The notes under the pieces: generated by a model
What the model was told of the DNA's origin: nothing
What the model saw: the letters and a program-made list of their open reading frames with translations, nothing else
Database searches by the model: none
Position numbers and translations under genes: made by a program
Shown: one piece after another, positions 3,667 to 49,307 of the stretch
How the letters are laid out: every line of letters starts with the position of its first letter
Position numbering within the stretch: the stretch's first letter is position 1
Source: an uncultured Bdellovibrionales bacterium
GTDB taxonomy: Bacteria > Patescibacteriota > Minisyncoccia > Moranbacterales > DUUL01
Assembly (NCBI GenBank): GCA_964556685.1
Contig: CAZKWX010000001.1
Location: forward strand, 95,854 to 159,853
Direction of reading: 5' to 3'
DNA: 64,000 nucleotides

Positions 3667-6426
3667 TCAGACTTTTATCCCCCGATGATACGTAACAACG
3701 TATCGCATCAACGGAGACACCAGAAGAATGGTTGCCATGAGACAAAGGAAAATTACCATTTCTTCCAGCCTCCCCAACATGGCCACGGGCATTGCTAGTG
3801 AAAAGCAGAGCCCTACAAACATGAGCATGTTGGTGACGCAGTCACCGCAAACATCAACAGCAGCGTTGACCATTTCTTTTTTCCTAATTACTAGGCCAAA
3901 AAGCTGGCTTTTACTGATGATTACCATTGTTTCATCGCTGAGTGCCAAGGTGCAATACCACCCCAGCATCAATAATGGGAAATCCACCGCAATTGTAACT
4001 GCAATTGGTCCGATCGTGGTATTGGCGATATCCATGGGCATACCGAACGCCCACATCGCTAGATACATTCCAGCCTGCGCCACGATAAATGGCACGGCCG
4101 TCACCACTCCTAACATCAAGAATGATACTGTCCAGGCGCTGTCTGACTTTCTAAAATGTCTTTTGAACGCCACGCCCGCCATCAGGATGACTACCAGTTG
4201 AAGTAAGAAGTTGAACAGAAAGCTGTTCTTCATAATTACTCTGTCGGACCCGACCCAGCGAGCTAAACCGCTAGGAAATCTGTTTGGTAAGGAGAAAATT
4301 CTTTCCACCTCATTTTCGATGAACACCATGACATTTCTCATGTCAGGTGTCGGCTGCTCTCCGGTGGAAACTTTGAGTAGGAAGTCACAGCGTGAGTTTT
4401 CTTCCGTTGGGCGCTCCATGCTTCTGCGAGCCAGATACGATTCTCCCCAACGGGCTTTACTGTAGCTCCAGACCTCATTCCAGGTTTGGATCAGTGTCTC
4501 GCGTATGCGGGTGGCGATGTTAAGATCAGTAAGCTCAATTCCCTCATCCAAGAGATCTTCGATCGCCAGCTCTCTTAAAAAGGAACTGACAACCCGACCT
4601 TCTTCGTAGCCAAAGTCCTGCAGACGTAGAACAAAATCGTCAACGGGAGAGTAGGCTCGAACTACCAGCCTATCTCGCTCAAGGCTATTTCTAAGGTCAA
4701 CGAGCTTGTCGATAACCAACGGATCGCCCAAGTCGATCTTTTCAAGCGTGGGCGTGAAAATATTCGATCCAGGTCGTCCTTCTTTGGCCAGCTCCTGATG
4801 GAGTTTGGCCTGTTGATTATCGGACAGGTAGGGCTCTGGATCATTTTGCTTACCAAGAAAAAACGTTGGCAAGACAAAATAGAAAATCAACGAAACTGCT
4901 GCGATTGACCAACAAACTTTGGTACTATGTCGCCACAGTACCCATCGACTGAAAATCCAGCTGATGGTTCTATTCAAAAAGTTGTTGACCGTTCGTGACC
5001 ACCGTGACAACTTGCCTTGAGATTGCTCAATTTTCTCGTTAGCTCCGCCAATTAAATAATATAGAATCGGCAGAAAGTTACGACACAGCCAGTAGGAAAT
5101 GATTATGGCTGAAATTGCCACTATGCTAACTTGAAAAATTGATTGAGAGCCTTTCAGATGACGGATATTCAACGCGACTGCAAAATCCGCGATGGAAATT
5201 GCAAACACCACTGTCACCATCCAGAGTTTAGATTTGACACTTTCCCATCGTTGCCAGTATTCGCCGGTACTACGACCGAGCTCTTTGGCGTGATGAAAGT
5301 TGAATGAGACACTAGACGCCAACGCAACAATAAACGCTACGCTGGTGTAGACATCTTCATTCGAGTGCCAAATGTAATCATTAGCCAGCCACAGAATTGC
5401 CTGACTAATTGGATCGTCACCGGTTATGGACTGATTAGCCCATTGAATAAAATCACTTAATGCGCCAATTGTTCCACGTGCAAACGCGAAACAACAGAGA
5501 ATGTTTAACCAGACTGCAAATGCTTGACGCCAAGATCCCAACAGAACTGTCAGAAAAAATGGAGCCAGACAAAGCATTATCGTACACATGAGGTAAGCAA
5601 ATAATGCGCAAACCGCTGTGACGATGTAACGTCCTCTCGACCAGCTGTACATTCCGTTGAGCTTGTTCTCCTCGTTTAGGGGGAAGCCTAAGTCGGCTTT
5701 AACCGTAATAACCTCCCCGGAATCAAGCTCTAACACGAAATTATTAAATGATGAATGCAGCTCATACCGAGGTTTGAGGTTTAATTCAAACCAAGTCCAC
5801 AAATTTTTTAGATCGAAACTAAAAACCAGTTCTCGCAAACTCCAGTTAAGGTCATAATCCTCTTCGCCCATAAAAAACAGGCTCAAGTATTGATTAAAAA
5901 CCTTTTCGTCCATCTCTTGATCGGGAATGAACAAGATTTGGGTGTAGATATAGTTTTCACTCCTCTCTGTCTTCACTCGACCAAGCAAATCGTCTCTCAA
6001 ACTACGCTTGGCATAGTTTTCTTCAAACCATTTTACCGGGTCGAAGTTTTCGTCCAGCACCATCTTCGAGGTGATAAAGTATCCCCTCGAATCCATTCGC
6101 GTGGCCAACGACGATATATCAACATTGATCCCACGGTCGTGGAAAAAATAGCGTCCCCGCTTAGCCATATTTTCAATAGCTAATAAGTTATCGCGGGTCA
6201 CTTTTCTCATGGGGATATACTTGGGCACAGCACAATCGCTGTATTCAATCTTAGATATTTCCTTTAGATATCTTTCGTCCTGCGCATAGCGGCTATCGCC
6301 ACGCAGCGCATATTTGACCATGGAAATCACATCCACGGCCCAATTTCCTTCCCAGCCTAAAACATAAAACATAGCCAGAAATATCGTTACCGTACTCGTG
6401 ATCTTCCATTTCAATTTCATTTTCAA
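3667..6426 (-). CDS. RND/MMPL-superfamily exporter (12-TM, two large periplasmic loops)
   Basis: The 919-aa protein has an N-terminal TM, a large soluble loop and a block of 5 TM helices. A second loop and a second TM block follow. This is the classic RND/MMPL topology. Confidence 0.6.
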   Translation of the reverse strand: MKMKLKWKITSTVTIFLAMFYVLGWEGNWAVDVISMVKYALRGDSRYAQDERYLKEISKIEYSDCAVPKYIPMRKVTRDNLLAIENMAKRGRYFFHDRGINVDISSLATRMDSRGYFITSKMVLDENFDPVKWFEENYAKRSLRDDLLGRVKTERSENYIYTQILFIPDQEMDEKVFNQYLSLFFMGEEDYDLNWSLRELVFSFDLKNLWTWFELNLKPRYELHSSFNNFVLELDSGEVITVKADLGFPLNEENKLNGMYSWSRGRYIVTAVCALFAYLMCTIMLCLAPFFLTVLLGSWRQAFAVWLNILCCFAFARGTIGALSDFIQWANQSITGDDPISQAILWLANDYIWHSNEDVYTSVAFIVALASSVSFNFHHAKELGRSTGEYWQRWESVKSKLWMVTVVFAISIADFAVALNIRHLKGSQSIFQVSIVAISAIIISYWLCRNFLPILYYLIGGANEKIEQSQGKLSRWSRTVNNFLNRTISWIFSRWVLWRHSTKVCWSIAAVSLIFYFVLPTFFLGKQNDPEPYLSDNQQAKLHQELAKEGRPGSNIFTPTLEKIDLGDPLVIDKLVDLRNSLERDRLVVRAYSPVDDFVLRLQDFGYEEGRVVSSFLRELAIEDLLDEGIELTDLNIATRIRETLIQTWNEVWSYSKARWGESYLARRSMERPTEENSRCDFLLKVSTGEQPTPDMRNVMVFIENEVERIFSLPNRFPSGLARWVGSDRVIMKNSFLFNFLLQLVVILMAGVAFKRHFRKSDSAWTVSFLMLGVVTAVPFIVAQAGMYLAMWAFGMPMDIANTTIGPIAVTIAVDFPLLMLGWYCTLALSDETMVIISKSQLFGLVIRKKEMVNAAVDVCGDCVTNMLMFVGLCFSLAMPVAMLGRLEEMVIFLCLMATILLVSPLMRYVVTYHRGIKV

Positions 6427-6805: not shown

Positions 6806-7618
6806 ATGAAAACAATTAAGTACTTGGTCATGCTTTTTGTGGCAGCTGCATTGGTGTTGCCATTGTCAACGCATGCCCTTTCGGGAACTGGAGTAGACAA
6901 TACCAAGATTAAAGCTGACGCAAAACATGGAGGAGAGTGGTTTCGTGCTTTCATTAAAAGAACTGATGACAAAGGAGTCTTAAAGGCAAAAAACCTGCCC
7001 CCTGGTTGGTATAAATTCGAGGTACGTAAAGAGGATGAGCGGGCTGGTCAAACTTTGGCAGTAGAACTGAGAATGTTAGACCGAGATGGGAGAAGAATAA
7101 AAGAGCGCACCAATGTTTATTTGTGGCAAATGGTGAGTGGTACAAAAGTTTCCGCTGGCACGCTTCGCACTGACAAGGATGGGTGGATCAAAGTCGCTGG
7201 TTTGAGTTTCAACACCGAATATAAAATGGATATCACCGAAAAAGACCACTCCCATGTCAGTAAAAAAGATGGACAGCCTAGAATTAAAGTGAAAACCAAA
7301 ATTAAAGGAGATTGGTTCAAGAGTTCTTATGCTCGAACCGATGAAAACATGGTCTTTGAAATGAAAGACGTTCTGCCTGGTAAGTATAAATTCAAGTACA
7401 AGAGTGGCGACCGAGATCCAGCGCTCCCTTTCGTAATTAAGGCTCAGATGCGGAATGATAAGGGGAAAAAGATAAAAGAGCCTACTCCAGTTAATTTGTA
7501 CGTCTATATCAACAAAGTTCGCACTCCCGTTGGAGTATTAATGACTGATGATGAAGGATGGATAACTATACCTGGAGTGATGACTGGCATGAAATATAAG
7601 ATCGAAGTGGACGACTAG
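6806..7618 (+). CDS. secreted protein with internally duplicated domain pair (prealbumin/CarboxypepD_reg-like)
   Basis: Signal peptide. There are two A-B repeat units: WFRAFIKRTDDKGVLKAKNLPPGWYKFEV with WFKSSYARTDENMVFEMKDVLPGKYKFKY, and TDKDGWIKVAGL with TDDEGWITIPGV. Confidence 0.5.
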   Translation: MKTIKYLVMLFVAAALVLPLSTHALSGTGVDNTKIKADAKHGGEWFRAFIKRTDDKGVLKAKNLPPGWYKFEVRKEDERAGQTLAVELRMLDRDGRRIKERTNVYLWQMVSGTKVSAGTLRTDKDGWIKVAGLSFNTEYKMDITEKDHSHVSKKDGQPRIKVKTKIKGDWFKSSYARTDENMVFEMKDVLPGKYKFKYKSGDRDPALPFVIKAQMRNDKGKKIKEPTPVNLYVYINKVRTPVGVLMTDDEGWITIPGVMTGMKYKIEVDD

Positions 7619-7862: not shown

Positions 7863-9701
7863 CTATTCAACCGTGACACTCTTGGCCAAATTTCTCGGCT
7901 TGTCTACATCGTAACCTAACCCAACTCCCACATGATAGGCGAAAAGTTGAGCTGGGATGACACTCAGAAGTGGTGTGAGCATTTCTAGTGTTTTGGGAAT
8001 ATAAATCACATCATCGGCTAACCGGCTGATCTTCCTGTCCCCTTCCGTTGCTACTGCAACAATTTTTCCACCTCGTGCCTTAATCTCCTCCATTCCACTG
8101 AGAACCTTCTCATAAACGCTGTCGCTTGGCACGATAAAGAAAGAAGGAAAATTCTTGTCTACCAAGGCAATCGGACCGTGTTTCATTTCTCCCGCTGCAT
8201 ATCCTTCGGCATGAACATAAGAAATTTCTTTTATTTTCAGCGCCCCTTCCATGGCAATAGGATAATTATATTTGCGACCGAGATAGAGCCAATCATTATA
8301 TTTCTTGTATTTCATCGCAATCTTTTTGATCTCGTTTTCTTTTTTCAATATTTTTTCAATCAGCCTGGGAATTTCTTTTAACTCTTGGGCGATTCTCTTT
8401 CCCATCACAAATGACATCTGACGTTGCCGTCCCAAACTCACCGCTAAGAGTGCCAAGATAGAAAGCTGCGAAGTAAACGCTTTGGTTGAAGCGACACCAA
8501 TTTCCGGACCAGCATGGTTATATACACCAGCATCAGTTTCTCGAGCAATAGTTGAGCCTACCACGTTGACGATGCCTAATGTGAGTGCACCTTTAAGCTT
8601 TCCCTCTCGAATTGCTTCCAAAGTGTCCGCCGTTTCTCCAGATTGGGAGATGGCTAAAATTGCCGTTCTTTCATCAATCACTGGTTTGCGATAGCGATAT
8701 TCACTGGCGAATTCTACTTCGACTGGAAGACCGGCATATTCTTCGATCATATACTCTCCTACCAAGCCAGCATAGGAAGAGGTGCCACAACTGACGATCA
8801 CTAGTTTATTGATTTTCCGCAATCTATCTTCCACTTCTCTAAGTCCACCCAAAATCGGCTGGGAGTCATCTTTGATTAGCCGATCTACTCGTCCTCGAAT
8901 AGCATTTTCAATCGCTTCTGGTTGTTCATGGATTTCCTTGAGCATGAAATGTTTGTAGCCCTGTTTTTGAGCCTTCTCAGCCGTCCAGGCAAGCCTGGAT
9001 GTTTTTTTGTCTACTTTTCCTTTGCCAATTTCCACCACTCGATAGGAATCTTTTTCAATTTCTGCCACTTCTCCATCGTTTAAATAAACAACTCGTTGCG
9101 TATAATTAATAATAGCTGAAGCATCCGAAGCCACGATATATTCATCCTTGCCGATTCCAAAAAGCAATGGACTGCCTTTTCGTGCAATGACTAGTTTCTC
9201 AGATTCCTTTTTTGACACAACTGCCAAGCCATATGTTCCTTCAACTTGCTTCAAAGCTTTTTGGACTGCCTCAAATAGCGAAGCTTTTTTAGACTCCTCT
9301 TCAATCAGATGAGCGAGCACTTCTGTGTCAGTCTCTGATGTAAATTTATGCCCTTTCTTTTGAAGTCGGTTGCGTAGTTGAGCATAGTTTTCGATGATTC
9401 CATTGTGAACCACAAAAATTTCTCCCTGACAATCTCCATGAGGATGGGCATTTCTAACTGATGGTTTTCCGTGAGTAGCCCAACGAGTGTGAGCGATCCC
9501 GACACAACCCTCTGTTTTGTTTCCGCTTAATTTATTTTCTAATTCGGTCACTTTCCCCACTGCTCTATTTGCTTTAATTTTATTGCCATCACAAACTGCA
9601 ATTCCTGCGCTGTCATAGCCACGATATTCCAGTCTTCTCAGCCCCTCCATGAGTACTGGCAAAGCCCTTTGCTTGCCAATGTAGCCAACAATACCACACA
9701 T
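7863..9701 (-). CDS. glmS: glutamine--fructose-6-phosphate aminotransferase
   Basis: N-terminal MCGIVGY... class-II glutamine amidotransferase with two SIS domains. 612 aa. A GGAG SD lies upstream. Confidence 0.93.
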   Translation of the reverse strand: MCGIVGYIGKQRALPVLMEGLRRLEYRGYDSAGIAVCDGNKIKANRAVGKVTELENKLSGNKTEGCVGIAHTRWATHGKPSVRNAHPHGDCQGEIFVVHNGIIENYAQLRNRLQKKGHKFTSETDTEVLAHLIEEESKKASLFEAVQKALKQVEGTYGLAVVSKKESEKLVIARKGSPLLFGIGKDEYIVASDASAIINYTQRVVYLNDGEVAEIEKDSYRVVEIGKGKVDKKTSRLAWTAEKAQKQGYKHFMLKEIHEQPEAIENAIRGRVDRLIKDDSQPILGGLREVEDRLRKINKLVIVSCGTSSYAGLVGEYMIEEYAGLPVEVEFASEYRYRKPVIDERTAILAISQSGETADTLEAIREGKLKGALTLGIVNVVGSTIARETDAGVYNHAGPEIGVASTKAFTSQLSILALLAVSLGRQRQMSFVMGKRIAQELKEIPRLIEKILKKENEIKKIAMKYKKYNDWLYLGRKYNYPIAMEGALKIKEISYVHAEGYAAGEMKHGPIALVDKNFPSFFIVPSDSVYEKVLSGMEEIKARGGKIVAVATEGDRKISRLADDVIYIPKTLEMLTPLLSVIPAQLFAYHVGVGLGYDVDKPRNLAKSVTVE

Positions 9702-11256: not shown

Positions 11257-11784
11257 TGTTATAAATTACGGATTACAGATCAGATACAAATATACAGATG
11301 TACGAATAATCCTAAACTCTAATAGAAGATTTTTTATTAGTATATTCGTATTTGATTCGTCTCTCGAAGGGAGATCACCCTCCGGGTGATAATTAGTAGA
11401 GAAAAACAAAACCCGTCCCAATAATCCCAAACATATTGTCTGAAATCATCAGGACGAGCTTCTTCTATCTTCAGTACTAGCTACAAGTTACTAGTTACTG
11501 AACTACCCGCGGTTCCACCTGAATTCGTTTTGTTACGTAGCATGCTACGTAACAAACGCTCTTGTTTTTGTTGCTAACTCCGGGGTGCCAATCTCCCATC
11601 AACATTAGCGAAACTAGAAATAAGTATAAATCTTTTTATTTGCATGTCAATAGCAAAATCCACGATTTCAAATCCCCCCTACTTCGTCCCGAATGCTCGG
11701 GACTTCGAAGGGCAGGCCTGAAAAATGTGGCTCATGCTTCGCCTACATTTTTTCCCCCTTTGCTAAAAGGGGAAATTTCCTCTC

Positions 11785-17340: not shown

Positions 17341-17500
17341 GTTTTCCTCCCCTTGCTAAGGGGAGGGCTGAAAAGCGGATGAGCTTTTCAGGAGGGGTTA
17401 GTCTAAATGGCAGTAGTCACCAGCCACTTGGACTAACTCCCCTGAATTCATTACTAATAAATTCAGCACCCTCTTACCAAGAGGGGGAACGCAAACTCTA
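17341..17500. repeat. multi-hairpin repeat element, right inverted copy flanking the GT4 pair
   Basis: Reverse-complement homolog of 14404..14573. It contains hairpins cctccccttgctaaggggagg, gctgaaaagc..gcttttcag and ccctcttaccaagaggg. Confidence 0.8.
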
Positions 17501-26448: not shown

Positions 26449-26670
26449 TTTTTTTACAATTAATAATTACTTTATTTTTTGTAATCCTTTACGAATTACT
26501 AATCAAATACCAATATACCAATAAAAATCCTAAACTCTAAATTCAAATACCTGAAATTCAAAATGTTCTGAGCTTAAAATTTGGAAAATTTGAATTTATT
26601 TAGGGTTTAGATATTAGGATTTAGGATTTAAACAAATTCGTATATTCGTACAAAATTCGTAATTCGTAAC

Positions 26671-27303: not shown

Positions 27304-27492
27304 TTTAGATAATACTTAATAATGCTAATCTCATGCGAATTTTGCTAATATACCAATCGTTTTTTCTATTCGCATATTCGCAACATTCGCATACCATTCG
27401 TAGATTAGTATTATATTGTTCGTATCATTCGCATATCATTCGCCCGCCTGCTTTGCATGCACAGCATTGCGGGCAGGTGGATTAGTATTACA
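27304..27492. repeat. intergenic cassette between rpsK and rpsD with 11-bp terminal inverted repeats
   Basis: ATAATACT...GGATTAGTATTA ends. Internal CTAATCTCATGCGAAT, (C)ATTCGCAT direct repeats and a conserved GC hairpin (cattcgcccgcctgctttgcatgcacagcattgcgggcaggtgg). Confidence 0.75.
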
Positions 27493-28086: not shown

Positions 28087-28313
28087 ATAAATATAATACT
28101 AATAACACTAATCTCATGCGAATGCCGCTAATACGCTAATAAATACAATACTAATGGATGTTACTTTATGCTAATCTTTCCTAGGTTCAATTCGCATATT
28201 CGCATCATTCGCATATCATTCGCCCGCCTGCTTTGCATGCACAGCATTGCGGGCAGGTGGATTAGTATTATACCCATTTGTACATCTGTATATCTGTACT
28301 TAATCTGTAATTA
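28087..28313. repeat. intergenic cassette between rpsM and rpsK (same family, TIRs ATAATACTAAT / ATTAGTATTAT)
   Basis: Same module order as 27304..27492. The GC hairpin is identical over 53 nt. Confidence 0.75.
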
Positions 28314-28970: not shown

Positions 28971-29335
28971 AGTTGTTTACGAATTACCTGCCCGCTTTGT
29001 GTTGCTGACTGGTAATGTTTTGCTAAATGCAATTAATTATTTGGAAAAAAATAACTTAAATCTGATTATCAAAGCAAGGCAGGCGGGCTAATCAAATACC
29101 AATATACGGATCTTTCTGTCAACGTTTAATGTCTAGTCTTAGTTCTCTTGTTTCCTTTCCCCCTTTAGCAAAGGGGGGAAGGAAAATATAGGCGAGTGAA
29201 GCGAGCCATATTTTTCAGGCCTGCCCTACGAAGCTTTCCTGACCTTCGTAGTTTCAACGAAGTAGGTTAGCGAAGTAGGGGGGATTTGAATTTGTTCGTA
29301 TATTCGTACTAAATTCGTAATTCGTAGAGAACTTT

Positions 29336-29554: not shown

Positions 29555-29907
29555 AAATGTAATACTAATGATGCTAATCTCATGCAAATACCACTAATAT
29601 GCTAATAAGTACAATACTAATGATGCGAATTTATGCTAATCTACAAATATGCTAATCTTACTTAAGTTCTATTCGCATATTTGTGTCATTCGCATTCATT
29701 TGTAAATTTGTATTATACCTATTCGTATATTCGTACACAATTCGTAATTAGTAGAAAACACAAAAACAGAAGGTGTTTTAAACAGACCGGTCCGAGGTCT
29801 TGATTTCAACCCTATAACCTTCGTTAGTTACGTATGAATAAATTTTTCAAGATTAACCGCTACAATCCAGACTATATAAAAAAGCAGTAATTGTCAAGCG
29901 TTTTCGG

Positions 29908-37388: not shown

Positions 37389-40300
37389 TTAAGTTACAAT
37401 GTTAACTAGCCGTCCTTTCACATAAATCACTTTCTTTGGTTTCTTTCTTCCTAAGTGTCTTTGTACTTTTTCGCTTCCCAAAGCAATCTTCTCTGCTTCT
37501 TTCTCTGAAATATCTTTTGAAACCATCACTTTATCACGCACTTTGCCATTGACCTGAATCACCAATTCAATTTCATCTTCAATTACTTTCTTGGGATCAA
37601 ACTTGGGCCATCTTTGTTCAAAGATTGAAGTATGCTTCTGGGCTTTCTTATTTTCCCCCTTTAGCAAAGGGGGTGTCCCGGCCTTGCCGGGACGGAGGAT
37701 TTGAAGTTCAGCCCAAAATTCTTCCGCTATATGAGGTGCCATTGGGGCTATAACCAATGCTAACGTCTCTTTTACCTTTTTAGCTTGAACTTTGTTAAAA
37801 TCATCTTTGTGATCCCGCATCCAGTTGACATATTCCATAATCCTCGCCACTGCTGTGTTGAAAGAAAGTTTTTCAATATCTTCTCCAACAACTTTGATTG
37901 TTTTGTCAATCATAGACATGTTCAATGGCTTTGTCTTGTTTTGTAGATGACGCAGATCTGCGTCATCTACAGACTTTGTATCGTCTGCTCCTACCTCATG
38001 AAAAACTTTCCACATTCGATTGAGGAACTTGTGCATTCCTTCAATGCCACTGTCTCGCCAGTCACCACCTTGGGCAAAGTCTCCTACAAATCGAAGATAG
38101 AGCCGTACAGTGTCAGCACCATACTTTTTGATCGCATCATCGGGGTTAACCACATTGCCTTTCGATTTGCTCATCTTAGTCCCGTCTTTGGTAATCAAAC
38201 CATGTCCAAAAAATCTCTTGTAAGGCTCGTCAAAATCAATGTAACCCAAGTCTTTCAAAACCATGGTCATGAAACGAGAATAAAGAAGATGTAAGACTGT
38301 GTGCTCCTTGCCACCAATGTAACTGTCCACCGGCAGCCATTTCTTGGTTCGCTTTCTGTCAAAAATCACCTCATTAAATTCAGTCGATGGATAGCGGAAA
38401 AAATACCAAGCGCTGTCGAGGAACGGATCCGAGACATCGGTTTCTCGCTCGGCGTCTCCTTCACAAACTGGGCATTTAACTTTGACAAACTTTTCATTTT
38501 TGGCCAAAGGCCCCTTGCCTTTCCCTTCCGGCAAAAAATCTTCCATCGGTGGTAATTTCACCGGAAGATCTTCCTCGGGAACCGAGACTGCCACTGGCTC
38601 AATACTCTCTTGGATTTTCTCTAGCAATTCTGGAAACTTCTTATTCTTTGGATTATCATCTACACAAAAATGCTTCCTGCCTTTAAGTTTTATTAATTTT
38701 GCACCCAACTTATTGCTAATCATCTCTGCACTTTCAACTCGATGAGTTTTGTCATTTGAGATAAAAATGGTCAGACTCTCAATCTGGTTTTTCAAACTCG
38801 AGTCAATTTTAAAATCAACAAAGCCTTTTATTCGCTCTTCTCTCTTAACTAATTTTTTAGATGGAGCATTTAAAATAACATTTCTAGCTTTTCTCCCTGT
38901 TTCTGATAGCCATTTTAATATAAAAGCTCCTCCGGCACTTGTTCCAACTAAAATTGTATCTTCATCAACATCAAAATTATCAATAGTTTCTTTCCAGTCT
39001 TCATAGTCCGGCTTCCAGTCTGTCGGCATAATTGGATTTATAACTTCAAATCCGTTCTTTTTCAGCTCTTTTTCAAGCCAGCTATGCCAATGTCGAACAT
39101 TCGGTTCAACATAATCTTTGTCGTGAGCTTTCGTCCGACCTGAAGAACCATGGATCATTAAAACTTTAATCCTTTTCAGCCCCTCCTTTTTCCTCCCCTT
39201 ACTAAGGGGAGGATTTAGGTGGGGTCCAAGCGCACAGCGCTTGCACCAGACAATCGGAATCGGCGGCCCCCAATATCTTTGCCGTGAAATGCACCAGTCA
39301 CGTAATTTGTAATTAACCGTCCATTTTCCATTTCCCTTTTCGACAGAAAAATCACCAATTGCTTTTCGAGCTTTCTTGGTTGGCATATCATCGAATTTCC
39401 CAGCATTCATCATCAGTCCCTCATTAACATAAGCCTTTTTCATTTTCTTTGGATCAAGCTTCTTTTCTCCCTTGGGATAAATCACGGGCACCAAATCTAG
39501 CTTATATTTTTTGGCAAACTCAAAATCTCTTTGATCGTGAGTGGGAGTGCACTTTACAATTCCCGTGCCATATTCATAGACAGCGAAATTAGCAGTATAA
39601 ATTGGCATTTCCCGGCCATTGAGATGATTGATCGCATACCGACCTGTAAAAAATCCTTCTTTCTTCTTTTCGACGTTGGCTGGGTCTTTGACTTTTTCTT
39701 CAATCACCTTCCGGCAGAAATCTTTGGCTCCTTTTTCATATTTTGTGCCTTGGACTAATTCATCAACAACAGGATGTTCTGGAGCAACAACCATAAAAGT
39801 AGCTCCCCAAGTGGTGTGTGGCCAGGTGGTAAAAGTTTTCAATTTTAATTTTATATCTTTGACTTTCCATTCTTCTTCCAAACCTTTACTTTTTCCAATC
39901 CAATTCCTCTGATTGGTTTTCACATCATCCGGCCAGTCGATCCAATCTAAATTCTTTAATAGCTGATCGGCATATTTAGTAATAGCAAAAAACCATTGCT
40001 TTAATTCTTTTTTCTCAACAACGCTGTCGCAGCGTTCGCACTTTCCTGCAATCACCTGTTCATCAGACAAAACTGTTTTACATGAAGGACACCAGTTCAC
40101 CTTGGCTTCTTTTTGATAGGCTAGTCCCTTCTTGAACATCTGCAGAAAAATCCATTGAGTCCACTTATAATAATTCGGTTTGTAAGTCTCCACTGTCCGC
40201 GACCAATCATACATGTTTCCGATTTCATGCAATTGCCGATAGAAATTTTTCTCACTCCTTTTAGAAACATCGCTAATGTGTTCGCCAATTTTCATGGCAT

Positions 40301-41520: not shown

Positions 41521-41640
41521 ATTTGCTTCCCTTGGTGCAAGGGGAGATTAAGAGGGGTTAGCTTGAATAGCAATAGAGACCGGCCAATTCACTTAACTCC
41601 CCTTAGTCCCCTCTTTCCAAAAGAGGGGAAATGAATAAGT
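41521..41640. repeat. short copy of the multi-hairpin element family
   Basis: cttcccttggtgcaaggggag...gaggggttagcttgaatagcaatagagaccggccaattcacttaactcccc...cccctctttccaaaagaggggaaa. It aligns to 17341..17500 with the central gaattc hairpin deleted. Confidence 0.7.
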
Positions 41641-43495: not shown

Positions 43496-44537
43496 TTTTG
43501 CTATTATTTTTATTAAGCCTGAAAAGGCGAAACCCACCGAAGCTACGCTTTTTTATACTGTTAATTTGCAAATGCCTTCATATTTATAAGGCAAAAGCTT
43601 TTTTGTATAATTCTGCGAAGATGGGCGCCCTCGTCAAGTGTTATTCCTTTGATACTATCAATCAGGTCAATGCAGAATAGCACACTACTTGACTTTTTTC
43701 CAGTATTTTGGTTGACTAAGGGTGTTCCATCTTGTTCCTCTTTCCTCCTGAGTGGGTTCGGTTCCCAGATACTGAGCCCGCTCTACACAAAAAACTTCTC
43801 TGAATTAGGGAAGTCAGTATATGCCCCGTTAAGTCCCGCGGTAAGAAACTTAGTCATTCACCGCCATTGACTTCTCGGGGTTTTTTATTTGACATCCACA
43901 CAAAACCTTCCCTGCAACTAAAACATTCCATCTCTATACTTTGATATATTGATATATTGATATATCAAAGTGAACAATGGATAATCTAAAATTTTTGAAG
44001 CTTTTGGAATGTGCCCCAATAAACTCTACTGCGCAAAGACAATTCTACTTGTGACTGCATCACGGATTTTACGGAGCTTTTTGTTTGACAATTTTTACAA
44101 AACCTTCAATACTTAATGGTAACTGTTCTTTGTCCCTGCTCCGGAGTTTACGGCAAGGATGTTCGTAGTCTAAAAGACTATAGATGGACATCACGGCAAT
44201 GCCGTCTTTGTCCAGCGTCATTCGTGCAGACCGAATCTCTGGGCAAAGAACAGTCCAAAAAAACTTTAAAATCTTCGGGCCCAACCAGGCCCTTTTTGTT
44301 TTCCTAATCATTATTTTAAACAAATAATGATTTTCTACTAACAACAGAATCACATTCTGTTTCTCAACACATCCCACTTCAGTATATTGTAGTGTTACTT
44401 GATTGCTGTTGTGAATAACACCTATTTTTGGCTTTTTGATTTTGGAAACTGCTACTTTAAAAAAACAAATACCCGATAGACAAAATCGGGATTTTATTCA
44501 GCAATAATTCTTTCGTCGGCTTTAACCTTCTATAAAA

Positions 44538-45938
44538 TCAGCAACAATATAGCTTATCTGGAATTTCATCGTCCGACTTCTCGCCAAATGGATTATTGTG
44601 TTTTTTTATATTTTTTAACATCTCTTTGTTCGACTCAGTTTGCATTCCTTTTTTCTCCTGCTCTGCACGAATCATTCGAACATAATATGGTAGTTTAATT
44701 CCCATGGGACAATTCCGGTGACAGACTCCGCAGAAGGTACAAGAAAAACTACCGGCGTCTTTGGCCCTTCTCAGCATTTCATTATCTAGATCACGACTTG
44801 CATCGTTCGCACCCTTCCGCGCCAATCCGCGTTCAGTCTGCGCGGATCCGCGCGCTCCATCCTCTTGGAGCGATAGATTGGCTGTCATGATGATTCCTTT
44901 TGATCCAGCAAATTTTCCGCCATATTTTTTGCCCATTTGATGATAGACTGGACAAAAATTGACGCAGGCTCCACAATTGATGCAACGCACCATTTCATCG
45001 AATCCTTTCTTGACCATTTCCCTTCTTCCATTGTCCACCAATATTAGATGCACTTCTTTGGCCCCCTGAGCTCCCTCCACTAGTTGATTTTCAATATCAG
45101 CTGTTTTTGATGGTCCAGAAACAACTGAAATATACTGAGCACAATCTTGACCAGTTCCAAAAACTGCCGCTACTCGACAAAGTTGAGTTGCATCTTCAAT
45201 AGTTTCAACCAATTTATCGATTCCACAAATTACGATGTGCTTCTCAGGAATACGCGAAACCAGAGAAATGTTTCCTTCATTTTCTAACAACACAACTTGT
45301 CCCGTCTGCGTGAAAAAATTCGCCCCGGTGATTCCCGTGTCTGCTTGTAAAATATTAGCTCTTATTTTTTTACAAAGATAGCGAGTGAGTTTTTTTGGAT
45401 CAGCTTTCACTTCATCTCCATAGACTTCTTTAATCCTTTCAGCAATTTGTTTACTATTCAAATGAAGCGCTGGCAACACATAATGTTGATCTTCTTCTTC
45501 CATCAAATTCACCACGAAGTCTCCTAGATCCGTTTCAAAATTATCCTGCCCCATTTTTTCTAGTAATTTTTCAACGCCAATTTCCTTCCCCATGTTTGAT
45601 TTAGACTTTACGATCTTATCTGTATCTTTAGAGGTACCTTTTTCCGCCCAAGGCGGACCAGCCTTTGGCTGGAAGATTTTTTTTAGTAAATTTCGTGCTT
45701 CACCTGCGTCTCTAACTTCAGAAACTTTAAACCCATGTTTTTGCAGATTTTCTTTCGCTTCTTTTAAGTTTTTTTCAAAGTTATCACCAAAAACTTTTTT
45801 TCTGATTTTTTTCACTTCGTTCCGATATTCATCTTTTGTCACGCCCAAATCTTCCAGCGTCCGAATGCGCTTTTTTCCGTAGTTGTAAACTACTTTCTTG
45901 ATTGATTGTTTGGTTTTATCGTCTAAAAATCTTGACAT
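44538..45938 (-). CDS. LutB-like iron-sulfur protein (LUD/DUF162 domain + 2x[4Fe-4S] ferredoxin motifs)
   Basis: CINCGACVNFCPVY and CTFCGVCHRNCPMG Cys clusters plus an N-terminal LUD-type domain. Confidence 0.65.
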   Translation of the reverse strand: MSRFLDDKTKQSIKKVVYNYGKKRIRTLEDLGVTKDEYRNEVKKIRKKVFGDNFEKNLKEAKENLQKHGFKVSEVRDAGEARNLLKKIFQPKAGPPWAEKGTSKDTDKIVKSKSNMGKEIGVEKLLEKMGQDNFETDLGDFVVNLMEEEDQHYVLPALHLNSKQIAERIKEVYGDEVKADPKKLTRYLCKKIRANILQADTGITGANFFTQTGQVVLLENEGNISLVSRIPEKHIVICGIDKLVETIEDATQLCRVAAVFGTGQDCAQYISVVSGPSKTADIENQLVEGAQGAKEVHLILVDNGRREMVKKGFDEMVRCINCGACVNFCPVYHQMGKKYGGKFAGSKGIIMTANLSLQEDGARGSAQTERGLARKGANDASRDLDNEMLRRAKDAGSFSCTFCGVCHRNCPMGIKLPYYVRMIRAEQEKKGMQTESNKEMLKNIKKHNNPFGEKSDDEIPDKLYCC

Positions 45939-45991
45939 GTTTTATAATACTAATCCGCGAATCTTATACGAATCTACAAATATGCCAATGT

Positions 45992-46396
45992 TTATTCCTT
46001 AGCATATGAGTTGATCACGCGTTTTGGAATTAGGTATTTTTGATGAAAATTGATAAGCAATCCTAATTTCTTATTTGAGAATCTTAAGTATCTTTTTATT
46101 TGGTTGTAATCTTCTCTGACGAATCCTCTTTTTGCTTTCACTTCCAGAATAATTTGGTCTTCTATAATAAAATCTATTCTATTACTATTGTTTTTGATAT
46201 ATTCACTTTCCGTCTCGACTATTACTTCTTTTTCGTAGAACATCCCTTTTTCAATGAGAAGTTTTTCCAAGGCATCACAATATTGTTTTTCCCGACAATA
46301 GTTGCCTAATTCATTGTGAACCTCAAAAAGCATGCCTGTTATTTCGTATGACAATTCTGGATAAATTATTTTTCCTTCGTTATCTTTGATTCGCAC
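45992..46396 (-). CDS. GxxExxY-family protein (PD-(D/E)XK nuclease-like)
   Basis: SYEITGMLFEVHNELGNYCREKQYCDAL matches the GxxExxY signature. Confidence 0.6.
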   Translation of the reverse strand: MRIKDNEGKIIYPELSYEITGMLFEVHNELGNYCREKQYCDALEKLLIEKGMFYEKEVIVETESEYIKNNSNRIDFIIEDQIILEVKAKRGFVREDYNQIKRYLRFSNKKLGLLINFHQKYLIPKRVINSYAKE

Positions 46397-46429
46397 ATTT
46401 GCAGATTAGCATTTATTTGTAGATTCGTA

Positions 46430-47140
46430 TTATAATCTCATATATTTATTCCAATAATCATATAACTCCCTCGTCGACACCAAGTCTCGCGCATTGTAGC
46501 GAGCGATGTCGAGATGTTTTCCTTCCCCAAAAAGCCGAGTTACGTCATCACCATTGATCCCCTCTTCTTTGGGACTTTTGATTCCGAAAGCTCGGCAACA
46601 CAAATGTAAATTTGTTCGTCCCCAAACTGCTCCATAGAAATTGAGTTGATCCATCAGATCAACGTGCTTTGAATCGCGTGGTTGCAAATTTAAATAGCGA
46701 TTGGCCATCAGATTCTTGCTCGGTCGAATCTTGTGAATAGCACTGCGAATCATCAAATAGGGTACATCGAACCCTCTCCCATTGAAACTGACAAATTCTT
46801 CTGCCTTCTCCGCCACCTTCCAAAAACTTTCTAGAATTTCTTTTTCGCCCATCGGTTTGAACTTGATTCCTTCTTCTTCAAACTCCTTGGCATCATCGGC
46901 TAAATTCTGGTGATAGACTGCGCCTTTCTTGGTGTCAGCGTCCAGAACTCCCACCGCGACAATTTCGCCTGTCAGCGGTGAAAAAACCAGCTCATTTTTG
47001 ATTTTCTCCAATTCTTCGTCAAATTTTTCTCCCGGCTCATCACCAACTCTGATTTTTTTGGTCAGCACTTTTTGGGTGACTTCGTCCATCTGGTCATAGT
47101 CTTCCCCAATTGTTTCAATGTCGAAAATAATTTTTGGCAT
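46430..47140 (-). CDS. DEDDy-type 3'-5' exonuclease (PolB-exonuclease-like)
   Basis: Exo I FDIET, Exo II FNGRGFDVPYL, Exo III YNARDL. Confidence 0.65.
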   Translation of the reverse strand: MPKIIFDIETIGEDYDQMDEVTQKVLTKKIRVGDEPGEKFDEELEKIKNELVFSPLTGEIVAVGVLDADTKKGAVYHQNLADDAKEFEEEGIKFKPMGEKEILESFWKVAEKAEEFVSFNGRGFDVPYLMIRSAIHKIRPSKNLMANRYLNLQPRDSKHVDLMDQLNFYGAVWGRTNLHLCCRAFGIKSPKEEGINGDDVTRLFGEGKHLDIARYNARDLVSTRELYDYWNKYMRL

Positions 47141-47241
47141 AGTTGTGTCTTAATAATTTATTATTATTATGATATAAATATTAGTTTTATAGAAGACAAA
47201 TACTTAACATATTCTAGTTTATTCCAAAAGGAGGTTGTCTT

Positions 47242-47745
47242 ATGAATTCGTTCTTTCAAGACCGAAAAGGTTATGAACTTTTTCTCAGGAGACTAGTTAA
47301 TTGTAAATTGAACGGCTATCCATCCAAGAATAGTACCTACAGCAAATTGCCTGATGGATCAAAACGATTCTGGGTCCAAGTAGGCAATGTCATGTTTACA
47401 GACTATTACTGGGGATCTAATCCCTTCTTCGGAGTCGAGGCCGCTTATATCGACGATAGTCATAATACTGTCTTAGTTTGGTCAATGTCATACTGTGGAC
47501 AGTGTTATTACACTCATTCAGAGCAAGTCGAATTTGTGTTTAGCTTTTTAAAATCAGCATTAAAAGAAGTTTCTTCAAGCACGCCCTATCGAGGGCCCCT
47601 CAGTTTTGCAAGAAATGACGGATTGTTGTTTTATGAATGTAAATGGTGGAAATCAACCGGGAATATGCTCCACGGAATGGAAATCATCCGGGATTATCGT
47701 GGAAATGTAGTATATCAATTAACTTTCCACGCTCCTCTCCTGTAA
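47242..47745 (+). CDS. hypothetical protein
   Basis: 167-aa ORF. It is the only plus-strand gene in this block. Confidence 0.35.
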   Translation: MNSFFQDRKGYELFLRRLVNCKLNGYPSKNSTYSKLPDGSKRFWVQVGNVMFTDYYWGSNPFFGVEAAYIDDSHNTVLVWSMSYCGQCYYTHSEQVEFVFSFLKSALKEVSSSTPYRGPLSFARNDGLLFYECKWWKSTGNMLHGMEIIRDYRGNVVYQLTFHAPLL

Positions 47746-47820
47746 TCAACTTCCAACCTATATTTAGAACTCTGCCATCAAAGGCCTTAAATATCAATAA
47801 AAGGCCTTTTTTGTTCCATA

Positions 47821-48345
47821 TCAAATCAATCGCAGCTTTTTAGAAATGATTTTATAATCAGGTATGGCTCTAGCAGTTAATTCCCAAAAAAAATTCGAAT
47901 GATTCATTTCTTTCAAATGACACATTTCATGCACCACCAGGTAGTTAGCCAGCTCATCTTCCAGCCACACAATCCGCCAATTGAAATTCAGATTTCCTTT
48001 CTTACTGCAACTTCCCCAGCGAGTTTTTTGATTGCGGATGGAAATGCGATTTATTCGAAAATTATAATACTGATTAAACCTATTGATCTTATTTTCAATC
48101 AATCTTCGTGCTTTCTCTTTATTATCCAAATAATCTTGCCTGGTTCCTTTTTTGAGTAAACTGTCGCTTTTTCTGGCTTTCATCTTGGCCACATTCTTTT
48201 CAATCCAATTTCGTTTTTGCTGAGTAAACTTCTCTGCTTGCTTTCGATTTGACCACCAGGGATAGGTCACCAAAACTTTTCCGTCTTCTCCAACAGAAAT
48301 TCTGATTCGCTTGTTTCTCTTATTGCGCCTGATTATGATTTGCAT
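47821..48345 (-). CDS. YgjP/DUF45-family zinc metallohydrolase (HExxH)
   Basis: HEMCHL motif and the family-typical C-terminus. The start was moved to the internal MQIIIRR because the ORF-track N-terminus is encoded by a hairpin repeat. Confidence 0.6.
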   Translation of the reverse strand: MQIIIRRNKRNKRIRISVGEDGKVLVTYPWWSNRKQAEKFTQQKRNWIEKNVAKMKARKSDSLLKKGTRQDYLDNKEKARRLIENKINRFNQYYNFRINRISIRNQKTRWGSCSKKGNLNFNWRIVWLEDELANYLVVHEMCHLKEMNHSNFFWELTARAIPDYKIISKKLRLI

Positions 48346-48557
48346 TCCTTCTTTATTTCCCCCTTTAGCAAAGGGGGAAGAAGAATTGAGACGAATCATG
48401 TTACCGAAAGGTAACGTGATGAGTCCAATTCTTCAGGGGGATTTGAATTTATAGTACTGAAAATCCCTCTGAAAAATATGGCTTATTACATTCGCCTATA
48501 TTTTCCTTCTCCCTTTTTCAAAGGAAGAAACACAATTAAATTCATGATTCGTAAAAC

Positions 48558-49307
48558 CTACACATCAAACAACTCACTCAACTCCATCACCTTGATCCCG
48601 CCATTGTTCCTCTTCAAATGCATATAGCACATAGGACAGCTGGTGATCAAGACATCCGCTCCAGTCATTTTGGCTTGCCCAATTCGGTCCTTGGCAATCT
48701 TGTTGGAAAGTTCGGGATCATTGGAACTCACTCCGCCACCACCGCCACAACAAAAACTCTTCTCGCCATGCAAATCCAGCTCGACTAATTGATAGCCTGC
48801 TTTTTTGATAATTTCCCTTGGTTGATCATAGATGCCCAAATGTCTCCCGAGGTGACAAGGATCATGATAGGTAGCGGCAACCTTTTCTCCCCCTGCCCGA
48901 GGGGGAGATTCAGAGGGGGTGGGAGTTTTTAACTTAGTTTTTGCCTTGTCAATTATTTCCGCCACATGTCTTGCTTCGATTCTCCATTCATCTCCAAGAA
49001 TCTTCGGATATTCTTTTTTGAACATCAATGTGCAAGCCGGACAATTGCTGATCACTCTGGTGACATTGTGTTGCCTGAAAATTTTGAAGTTTTCCTTGGC
49101 CAATCGTTCATATTCTTCAATTGCTCCCGCATTTTTCACCGGTGAACCACAACAAAATTCTTTGTCTTTGAGCAACAAAAAATCAACTCCCTCGGCCTCC
49201 AGGATTTTCCGATAACGCTCCAGCATCCCTTCTCCAGCAAATTTTGTCAGACAGCCGGGATAATAGAGCGTGTTTCCGCTTTTAAAAATGTTATCTAAAA
49301 AGCTCAT
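48558..49307 (-). CDS. LutA-like (Fe-S) oxidoreductase with two CCG cysteine-rich domains
   Basis: CCGSPV...NCPAC and HDPCH...CCGGGGG...CPMC motifs. Confidence 0.65.
   Translation of the reverse strand: MSFLDNIFKSGNTLYYPGCLTKFAGEGMLERYRKILEAEGVDFLLLKDKEFCCGSPVKNAGAIEEYERLAKENFKIFRQHNVTRVISNCPACTLMFKKEYPKILGDEWRIEARHVAEIIDKAKTKLKTPTPSESPPRAGGEKVAATYHDPCHLGRHLGIYDQPREIIKKAGYQLVELDLHGEKSFCCGGGGGVSSNDPELSNKIAKDRIGQAKMTGADVLITSCPMCYMHLKRNNGGIKVMELSELFDV

Follow-up and report, generated by a model that had tools for sequence, protein, structure and literature searches.

Operons of the LutABC/YkgEFG type, such as lutABC of B. subtilis, encode a CCG protein followed by a LUD protein with two 4Fe-4S motifs, and the fused LdhH of Desulfovibrio (NF045670) holds the counterparts of both, so that the CCG and LutB-like proteins described here correspond to its C- and N-terminal halves. 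A different family that is relevant here, PDDEXK_3, was listed with 'Unknown' function and 'multiple transfers' in a 2012 survey of PD-(D/E)XK proteins (PMC3424549). Insertions in the rRNA genes of the candidate phyla radiation (CPR) were reported to carry open reading frames (ORFs) of the LAGLIDADG, GIY-YIG and 23S_rRNA_IVP types, not PDDEXK_3 (PMC11270868). We analyzed a stretch of 64,000 nucleotides (64 kb; hereafter the window, to which all positions refer unless a locus is named) of contig CAZKWX010000001.1 from an uncultured member of the Patescibacteriota. In this window lutA/lutB adjacency is lost: a CCG-domain (LutA-like) gene and a LutB-like gene are 2.6 kb apart. Between them lie genes for a YgjP-like metallohydrolase (YgjP), a DUF5680 protein on the opposite strand, a DEDDy 3'-5' exonuclease (Exo) and a small GxxExxY nuclease of the PDDEXK_3 family. 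The explanation that we favor, and that we consider probable, is that the region is a mosaic of three layers: an old split of the two Lut-type genes with two resident genes, a variable slot, and a GxxExxY module. The initial annotation had read the four genes as one mobile or defence-related cassette dropped into a lutA-lutB operon.

The ancestral arrangement was examined in 80 species genomes, which were collected by a LutB profile and annotated with hidden Markov models seeded from the window proteins; the neighbourhoods of the closest relatives were also annotated with Pfam. In about 40 CPR and DPANN loci the CCG gene directly adjoins LutB or overlaps it, so the two genes are indeed normally adjacent, as had been proposed, and the split in the window is therefore derived. 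In locus L011 (LutB 49% identical) the two genes are only 3 bp apart, and an Aenigmatarchaeota-rich clade shows the reversed order of LutB, 1.1-1.7 kb, then CCG. The order CCG, YgjP, Exo, LutB was found in ten relatives with LutB 58-69% identical to that of the window. It is seen in this plain form in L004 and L008 (a Moranbacteria metagenome-assembled genome), has an ArsP-like gene and small ORFs in the YgjP-Exo interval in L005 and a 181-aa ORF ahead of LutB in L007, and is kept in the marine loci L009 and L010 despite wholly different outer flanks. In a neighbour-joining tree of LutB, calculated without support values, the split order is restricted to one clade (the window, L004, L005, L007, L008, L009, L017, L020, L044 and L045). 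Its sister pair, L023/L029, shows Exo-LutB, and a subclade nested in the split clade has LutB without CCG, YgjP or Exo within 8 kb. The CCG|LutB pair was thus separated in the ancestor of one Moranbacteria-like clade of Patescibacteria.

YgjP, just downstream of CCG, and Exo, just upstream of LutB, are old residents and not a strain-specific insert. Orthologue identities to the window proteins are 53-74% for Exo, 41-60% for YgjP and 58-64% for CCG, and both residents are conserved with intact catalytic motifs, as resident genes would be. Ten syntenic YgjP orthologues share the HE(L/M)CHLxxMNH motif and the position of the start, the window protein retaining the HExxH...H form as HEMCHLKEMNH, and the FDIET, NGRGFD and YNARD motifs of Exo are conserved in 12 syntenic orthologues. 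Two small genes of selfish type also decorate the conserved cluster in L004, the closest species relative: a GIY-YIG gene (4014-4280) directly preceding CCG and, right after LutB, a weak Y1_Tnp (IS200/RAYT-like) gene (8435-9124).

These data bear directly on the proposed cassette. Its appeal lies in gene families tied to nucleic-acid processing, in a split that is derived relative to most CPR/DPANN genomes, and in the repeats within the region. Yet YgjP and Exo stand at the site in ten relatives, where GxxExxY and DUF5680 are found in none, and this rules out a single four-gene cassette; the finding named beforehand as one that would refute the cassette, all four genes as a conserved native operon between lutA and lutB in distant relatives, holds for two of them. 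The idea that the four genes travelled together was rejected on the same grounds. Housekeeping genes occupy the same slot elsewhere, the region's base composition is unremarkable, no repeat pair bracketing 45939-48557 was found in the window, and Pfam profiles detected no integrase or transposase domain among the six proteins. A defence role finds no support in PADLOC-DB v2, where none of the six proteins matched a family at E<=0.01, and PHROGs gave only weak matches (for Exo a match to a generic polymerase-exonuclease, otherwise two families without known function). The cassette is thus largely refuted and we regard it as extremely unlikely, although one part of the earlier suggestion survives: the GxxExxY gene, taken by itself, looks like a discrete element with terminal inverted repeats.

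A second possibility is that CCG-YgjP and Exo-LutB, or all four genes, are a functionally coupled native operon, with a hydrolase and an exonuclease serving Fe-S proteins. Two tight pairs do persist in the clade: order and orientation are kept in 10 genomes despite the changed outer flanks, with CCG-YgjP spacers of 6-55 bp (L008, L044, L045) and Exo-LutB spacers of 17-68 bp (L005, L008, L045), and the Exo-LutB pair is also present in L023/L029. The divergence of the four proteins, compared over 9 loci, too few for a test of congruence, is nominally correlated for Exo and YgjP (rho 0.72, p 0.03) and not significantly for the others. In the subclade without the PolB-type Exo, a different DEDD exonuclease of the RNase_T/ExoX type is found near LutB. 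However, three opposite-strand biosynthetic genes break the block in L017, L020 and L044, the nested subclade keeps LutB with no partner nearby, about 40 other CPR/DPANN genomes have CCG|LutB without YgjP or Exo, and we know of no biochemical link among these families, so that we find such coupling unlikely.

The RNase_T/ExoX-type genes (RNase_T + ExoX-like_C; L015 4724-5497, L016 6321-7064, L021 6518-7234, L022 4767-5513) lie 0.7-2.5 kb upstream of LutB, and these loci belong to the subclade whose LutB has neither CCG, YgjP nor a PolB-type exonuclease nearby; this may be a coincidence or a hint of an exonuclease-LutB association. In L033, LutB appears as two consecutive ORFs (8106-8408 and 8409-9200), for which a frameshift, a pseudogene or an assembly error might account.

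The second layer is the slot between YgjP and Exo, which is a place of ordinary gene turnover. It measures 39 bp in L009, holds three opposite-strand genes in L017, L020 and L044 (class I/II aminotransferase, prephenate dehydrogenase/chorismate mutase and prephenate dehydratase; L017 has an additional NUDIX gene), and is occupied by an ArsP-like permease gene in L005 and in L045 and by one for an unknown protein of 713 aa in L033. In the window it is filled by the 167-aa protein that had been described as unknown and that belongs to DUF5680 (PF18931), as a divergent member with 70.2 bits against a gathering score of 25. A gene of this family between these neighbours was seen only in contigs of the window strain and was absent from every other fetched locus. 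A word search for relatives returned the own strain only, whereas an exhaustive search found 380 representatives of the family, of which the best had 39% identity. An alignment-based AlphaFold (AF2) model of the protein predicts two helix+beta-meander repeats with a predicted local distance difference test score (pLDDT) of 95.4, and the model had no significant fold match among solved structures (PDB). The hairpin and T-run that follow the DUF5680 stop codon, between the convergent DUF5680 and YgjP genes, are likely a terminator, and DUF5680 together with this hairpin probably divides transcription here between two units, CCG-YgjP and Exo-GxxExxY-LutB.

The third layer is the GxxExxY module. 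The gene is found at the Exo|LutB junction only in the window strain and is absent from the orthologous junction in all relatives; without the gene, the spacer is 17-112 bp long in L004, L005, L008 and L045. All five contigs with an identical LutB also carry it, so among these contigs no strain variant without the gene was found. The gene is bracketed by two arms, which are arrays of short units in inverted orientation, and the arm on the LutB side stops 1 nt short of the LutB start codon. Within the arms lies a perfect 17-nt inverted repeat, ATACGAATCTACAAATA (45966-45982 and 46414-46430). This corresponds to the 'TIR-leader motif' (TIR, terminal inverted repeat) that had been placed at the borders of the whole insert, and which has 9 matches in the window against 0.29 expected; the repeat is real, but it brackets the GxxExxY gene only and not the 2.6-kb block. 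The same units also form hairpins without an ORF elsewhere in the window (Table 1), four of the five in successive intergenic spacers along a run of small minus-strand genes at 26.5-29.8 kb. The downstream arm also contains a sigma-70-like match (45961-45988, minus strand; TTGGCA-16-TAAGAT), which begins the LutB start codon's upstream context at about 22 nt and is a consensus match only. The gene 3' of the insertion might be expressed, or have its expression restored, from the arm.

The same architecture recurs in other CPR contigs, where GxxExxY homologues 60-74% identical to the window protein lie co-directionally between unrelated housekeeping genes with the same arms. A metagenome scan added 80 GxxExxY loci, and arm statistics were calculated over 83 homologous loci. 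Upstream flanks have 26.6 forward and 0.26 reverse units per kb, and downstream flanks 24.8 reverse and 0.94 forward units per kb. With a background of 0.8-1.0/kb this is an enrichment of about 30-fold with strict polarity. At least two units are present on both sides in 62 of the 83 loci. Units are most often spaced 8 nt apart, the median arm has 3.5-4 of them, and the ORF is directly flanked by the arms, at median distances of 1 nt from its approximate start and 3 nt from its stop. Among 640 kb of CPR sequence taken from the LutB survey, unit clusters occur only around the sole GxxExxY gene, in L032. Near GxxExxY genes there are 13 clusters without an ORF in 194 kb; the window has 5-6 in its 64 kb, and the 640 kb without the gene have none (p about 6e-9). 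The enrichment of the units together with their co-occurrence with GxxExxY indicates that arrays and gene belong together.

How the arms act can be asked at the level of RNA or of DNA. One option is that the arrays pair in the polycistronic transcript, where the stem would be cut (e.g. by RNase III) and the GxxExxY message excised or insulated, for which the intervening sequences that are removed from 23S rRNA provide the model. In its favour, the two arms are complementary and lie directly beside the ORF, every module has the direction of its host operon, and arms of one locus pair better with each other (median -47.8 kcal/mol) than arms of different loci (-37.5) or shuffled arms (-29.2; p 6e-10). 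Genes of the 23S_rRNA_IVP family occur in the same genomes and are known within CPR rRNA insertions (PMC11270868). However, among the mismatches between arms, sense-strand G.U is not in excess of A.C (135 vs 121, p 0.42) and transversions prevail, the arms match each other at only about 80% along about 47 nt, and the hairpins without an ORF have nothing to excise. Given no positive sign of an RNA-level role, the arms are no less likely to act in DNA, as terminal inverted repeats or as arrays bound by the nuclease, and excision or insulation of the message does not appear probable to us.

Another option at the DNA level is that the hairpin arrays are intergenic elements of the host and that the GxxExxY gene targets their loops, so that the arms would mark the insertion site. 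IS1397, which inserts into BIME (bacterial interspersed mosaic element) palindromes, offers an analogy. Hairpins of the same units without an ORF do occur in the window and near other GxxExxY genes, and the Exo-LutB spacer of L004 has a small hairpin with one unit-like sequence per arm. Against this, the arrays are absent from the 640 kb of CPR DNA without the gene, the unit type shifts with the GxxExxY lineage across phyla, suggesting co-evolution of gene and arms, and a 23S_rRNA_IVP gene in L097 is preceded by units of a different type. We therefore consider pre-existing host hairpins as targets quite improbable. The units in L097 (8281-8341) are of the TTTTCAAT type and lie directly upstream of this unrelated small gene, which argues against a general-purpose holder role of the T[AG]CNAAT arms. 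L097 also has a large intergenic inverted array of ACATAGAAC / GTTCCATG (6950-7130), and this suggests that there are several families of array hairpins in CPR genomes.

Outside the CPR we looked at eight loci from annotated plasmid and chromid records. The gene is wedged co-directionally between fabD and fabG in Sphingomonas (fabD, GxxExxY, fabG, acpP, fabF), between radA and a FAD protein gene in Bacteroides, and between ade and a mannose-1-P guanylyltransferase gene in Bernardetia. In these three of the eight loci the bracketing inverted arrays are strong: 31-32 nt (z 11.8) with CGCGAAG-type units in Sphingomonas, 30 nt (z 12.0) with CACAGAGG-type units in Bacteroides and 28 nt (z 8.4) with CACAGAGA-type units in Bernardetia; those of Treponema and Gemmatirosa are weak (z about 3). 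CPR loci thus have T[AG]CNAAT units, Sphingomonas CGCGAAG and the Bacteroidota CACAGAG(G/A). A shared architecture with lineage-specific units is what would be expected if protein and arms co-evolve. At the fabD/fabG locus of Sphingomonas parapaucimobilis (NZ_CP155749.1; L182 2483-2911), the downstream arm lies within the 3' end of the coding sequence as annotated.

Taken together, these observations fit a history in which the CCG|LutB pair was first separated in the ancestor of the clade, leaving YgjP beside CCG and Exo beside LutB. The YgjP|Exo slot would then have turned over, with the opposite-strand DUF5680 gene present there in this strain, and a compact GxxExxY module with inverted arrays on both sides would have entered the Exo-LutB spacer co-directionally. 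The bracket is a property of the family as regards architecture, whereas for its mechanism we can only infer that the module is probably a selfish nuclease element whose arms would serve as terminal inverted repeats or as nuclease binding sites in DNA. The hairpins without an ORF would be derivatives similar to miniature inverted-repeat transposable elements (MITEs). The evidence that the module is mobile is moderate. The paralogue nearest to its gene (74% identical) is flanked by TGT and a glycosyltransferase gene on a contig of the same sample, and several GxxExxY pairs that are 81-88% identical stand in wholly different contexts. In a scan of viral contigs for this GxxExxY subfamily none was found.

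Several observations weigh against this reading and should be set beside it. Pairs at least 96% identical mostly share the same context and some at 80-83% are still syntenic, so that any mobility is slow. No pair of empty and filled sites at nucleotide-level similarity was found, so movement was not directly observed, and no target-site duplication was identifiable. Recognizable arms are absent in 7 of the 83 CPR loci and in 3 of the 8 loci outside the CPR. The co-occurrence of the gene and hairpins without an ORF fits equally well with the hairpins being an insertion target rather than part of the element. As for the older layers, the LutB tree lacks support values, and functional coupling could lie behind the tight CCG-YgjP and Exo-LutB pairs.

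A broader version of the selfish-element reading is possible, and we put it forward tentatively. GxxExxY genes would be widespread mini selfish elements, each a nuclease gene of ~130 aa in the loop of a hairpin, whose arms are lineage-specific arrays of 7-mers at 8-nt spacing. The nuclease would recognize the arrays and mobilize the module, together with the MITE-like copies that lack an ORF, into operon spacers, and related GC-rich hairpins would even enter coding sequences in-frame. Such elements would be a PD-(D/E)XK analogue of the system formed by repetitive extragenic palindromes (REP) and their associated tyrosine transposases (RAYT).

Table 1. Features of the split Lut-type region and related elements (window positions; a dot marks features given without a strand).
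Feature	Position	Strand	Details
CCG-domain (LutA-like) gene, 249 aa, intact	48558..49307	-	PF02754 1.5e-40, two CCG repeats
Perfect 9-bp-stem hairpin in-frame within CCG	48886..48908	-	Encodes SPPRAGGE, absent from 12 orthologues
CCG-YgjP spacer, dispersed GC-rich hairpin elements	48346..48557	-	Strongly structured
YgjP-like (DUF45) HExxH metallohydrolase gene	47821..48345 (mechanical ORF to 48399)	-	PF01863 9.7e-42
Hairpin + T-run after DUF5680 stop (likely terminator)	47780..47809	+	9-bp stem AAAGGCCTT...AAGGCCTTT, then TTTTG
DUF5680 gene, 167 aa	47242..47745	+	PF18931 2.2e-19
PolB-exo2 / RNase H-fold DEDDy 3'-5' exonuclease (Exo) gene, 236 aa	46430..47140	-	PF10108 2.1e-21, PF13482 (RNase_H_2) 3.4e-14
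Upstream arm, T[AG]CNAAT unit array (minus-strand reading)	46397..46450	-	Contains one copy of the 17-nt repeat; unit cluster 46389-46429
GxxExxY / PDDEXK_3 small PD-(D/E)XK nuclease gene, 134 aa, GTG start	45992..46396	-	PF13366 3e-24
Downstream arm, ATTNG[CT]A unit array (minus-strand reading)	45939..45991	-	Contains second copy of the 17-nt repeat; unit cluster 45948-45989
LUD + 2x[4Fe-4S] (LutB-like) gene, 466 aa, intact	44538..45938	-	PF02589 1.4e-42 + Fer4 families
Small palindrome and adjacent second one, in-frame within LutB	45658..45672	-	Together encode unique insert QPKAGPPWAEKG
Bidirectional terminator-like hairpin downstream of LutB	44472..44490	.	Sequence
Largest hairpin without ORF, T[AG]CNAAT/ATTNG[CT]A units	29563..29753	.	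9 forward + 8 reverse units
Other hairpins without ORF, T[AG]CNAAT/ATTNG[CT]A units	11285-11350, 26490-26668, 27323-27433, 28097-28213	.	Unit clusters

All six ORFs were recovered where the initial annotation had placed them, and scoring of the proteins against Pfam and NCBIfam profiles confirmed the families, every one above the Pfam cut-offs. YgjP reaches 143.8 bits (PF01863, cut-off 26), Exo 77 bits (PF10108, cut-off 24) and the GxxExxY protein 79.9 bits (TIGR04256, cut-off 35). The PD-(D/E)XK core of the last is kept, with E36, Y39, D75 and E85-x-K87 conserved. For YgjP, translation probably begins at the ATG at 48345 (174 aa), since orthologues do not conserve the 18 residues that the mechanical ORF has ahead of it. 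No paralogues of the six proteins were found in the 64-kb window. A sequence search of the PDB gave nothing useful for DUF5680, Exo, YgjP or the GxxExxY profile, with YgjP matching proabylysin weakly (1e-3).

The assignment to the Lut proteins stands at the level of domains. The CCG protein has the two CCG cysteine-rich repeats of LutA, carries a lineage-specific linker insert of 10 residues in the orthologue alignment, and aligns to positions 469-701 of the LdhH model. The LutB-like protein has the LUD and 4Fe-4S domains, all invariant Cys, the C-terminal PDKLYCC and two lineage-specific inserts, but it scores 267 bits on TIGR00273, under the equivalog cut-off of 444.8, and the name 'LutB-like' is therefore valid at domain level only. 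A similarity-based search (blastp/tblastn) detected no LutC-like (LUD-only) gene in the window, and none appears in the annotated neighbourhoods of the relatives. The locus thus differs from LutABC in the undetected LutC-like gene, the sub-threshold LutB-like score and the 2.6-kb gap, and also in its family, a CPR/DPANN-wide form of ~420 aa with the conserved C-terminal PDKLYCC. This LutB-like family is common to CPR bacteria and DPANN archaea (L067-L090 are Aenigmatarchaeota and related DPANN loci), and by the homologues of its member in the window the source genome belongs to the Patescibacteria, close to Moranbacteria. Both Lut-like genes are intact and presumably their products still work together in trans.

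The GC-rich hairpins of the CCG-YgjP spacer belong to another set of elements. They are strongly structured (48340-48560; minimum free energy -74.3 kcal/mol, z -6.5, with 0 of 200 shuffles as good), and had been taken as copies at the border of an insert (48351-48530). The hairpins are real, but exact or near-exact copies occur elsewhere in the window (29156-29177, 37652-37673 and 11752-11776), and as a dispersed family they are not insert borders. One short type, of the CCCC(C/T)..GGGG form, includes 48357-48379 and those copies, among them exact 22-nt ones; similar hairpins are found at 17346-17366, 39191-39213 and 41607-41629, and the spacer segment 48469-48509 matches 29178-29218 at 88%. 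Rfam gave no family at gathering score for this spacer, and at permissive E-values over 43.5-50 kb only two far sub-threshold matches to miRNA precursors, which we judged to be chance fits to the hairpin shape. The in-frame GC-rich hairpins of both Lut genes coincide exactly with lineage-specific inserts, and a third LutB insert (residues ~355-395; 44741-44882) contains the palindrome GCGCGGATCCGCGC. These in-frame hairpins resemble the Rickettsia palindromic elements within coding sequences.

The apparent cassette can thus be described as an old, vertically inherited rearrangement together with ordinary gene turnover, which is deflationary for the earlier reading, and it is a caution against reading gene neighbourhoods in fast-shuffling CPR genomes as 'inserts'. 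What is gained is that the large GxxExxY/PDDEXK_3 family now has a reproducible genomic signature: the inverted-array bracket, the companions without an ORF and co-directional wedging (e.g. fabD|fabG). This signature gives a testable hypothesis, a nuclease with cognate repeat arrays, and defined DNA substrates, and it may explain one class of the dispersed intergenic hairpins in CPR genomes. No prior description of the bracket was found in the searchable literature, which is not proof of novelty, and GxxExxY is scarce there, with incidental mentions only.

Comparison with known systems helps to place the module. PADLOC-catalogued defence islands share with the region nuclease and hydrolase families that are also met in defence contexts; they differ in that no model matches the six proteins, and the synteny points to conserved chromosomal residents. 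Free-standing homing endonuclease genes (T4 seg/mob; GIY-YIG, HNH) are likewise small nuclease genes that are wedged co-directionally, and with patchy distribution, between genes adjacent in relatives. Their nuclease fold is other than that of GxxExxY, and they normally lack inverted-repeat arrays. The intervening sequences of 23S rRNA (23S_rRNA_IVP) also have a small ORF in the loop of a long stem, and both families occur in CPR, but the host of GxxExxY is the spacer of a protein-coding operon and not rRNA, with no G.U bias in the arms. The REP/RAYT systems (REPtrons) and the pairs of MITEs with autonomous elements are similar in having a small nuclease-type gene between inverted short repeats, which are also dispersed as intergenic hairpins without an ORF. 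GxxExxY differs from them as a PD-(D/E)XK protein (PDDEXK_3) without a Y1_Tnp domain, and so is not a Y1/HUH transposase; its arms are 7-mer arrays at 8-nt spacing and not a single REP hairpin. By this analogy the GxxExxY module may work like REP/RAYT, though it is not a member of that group.

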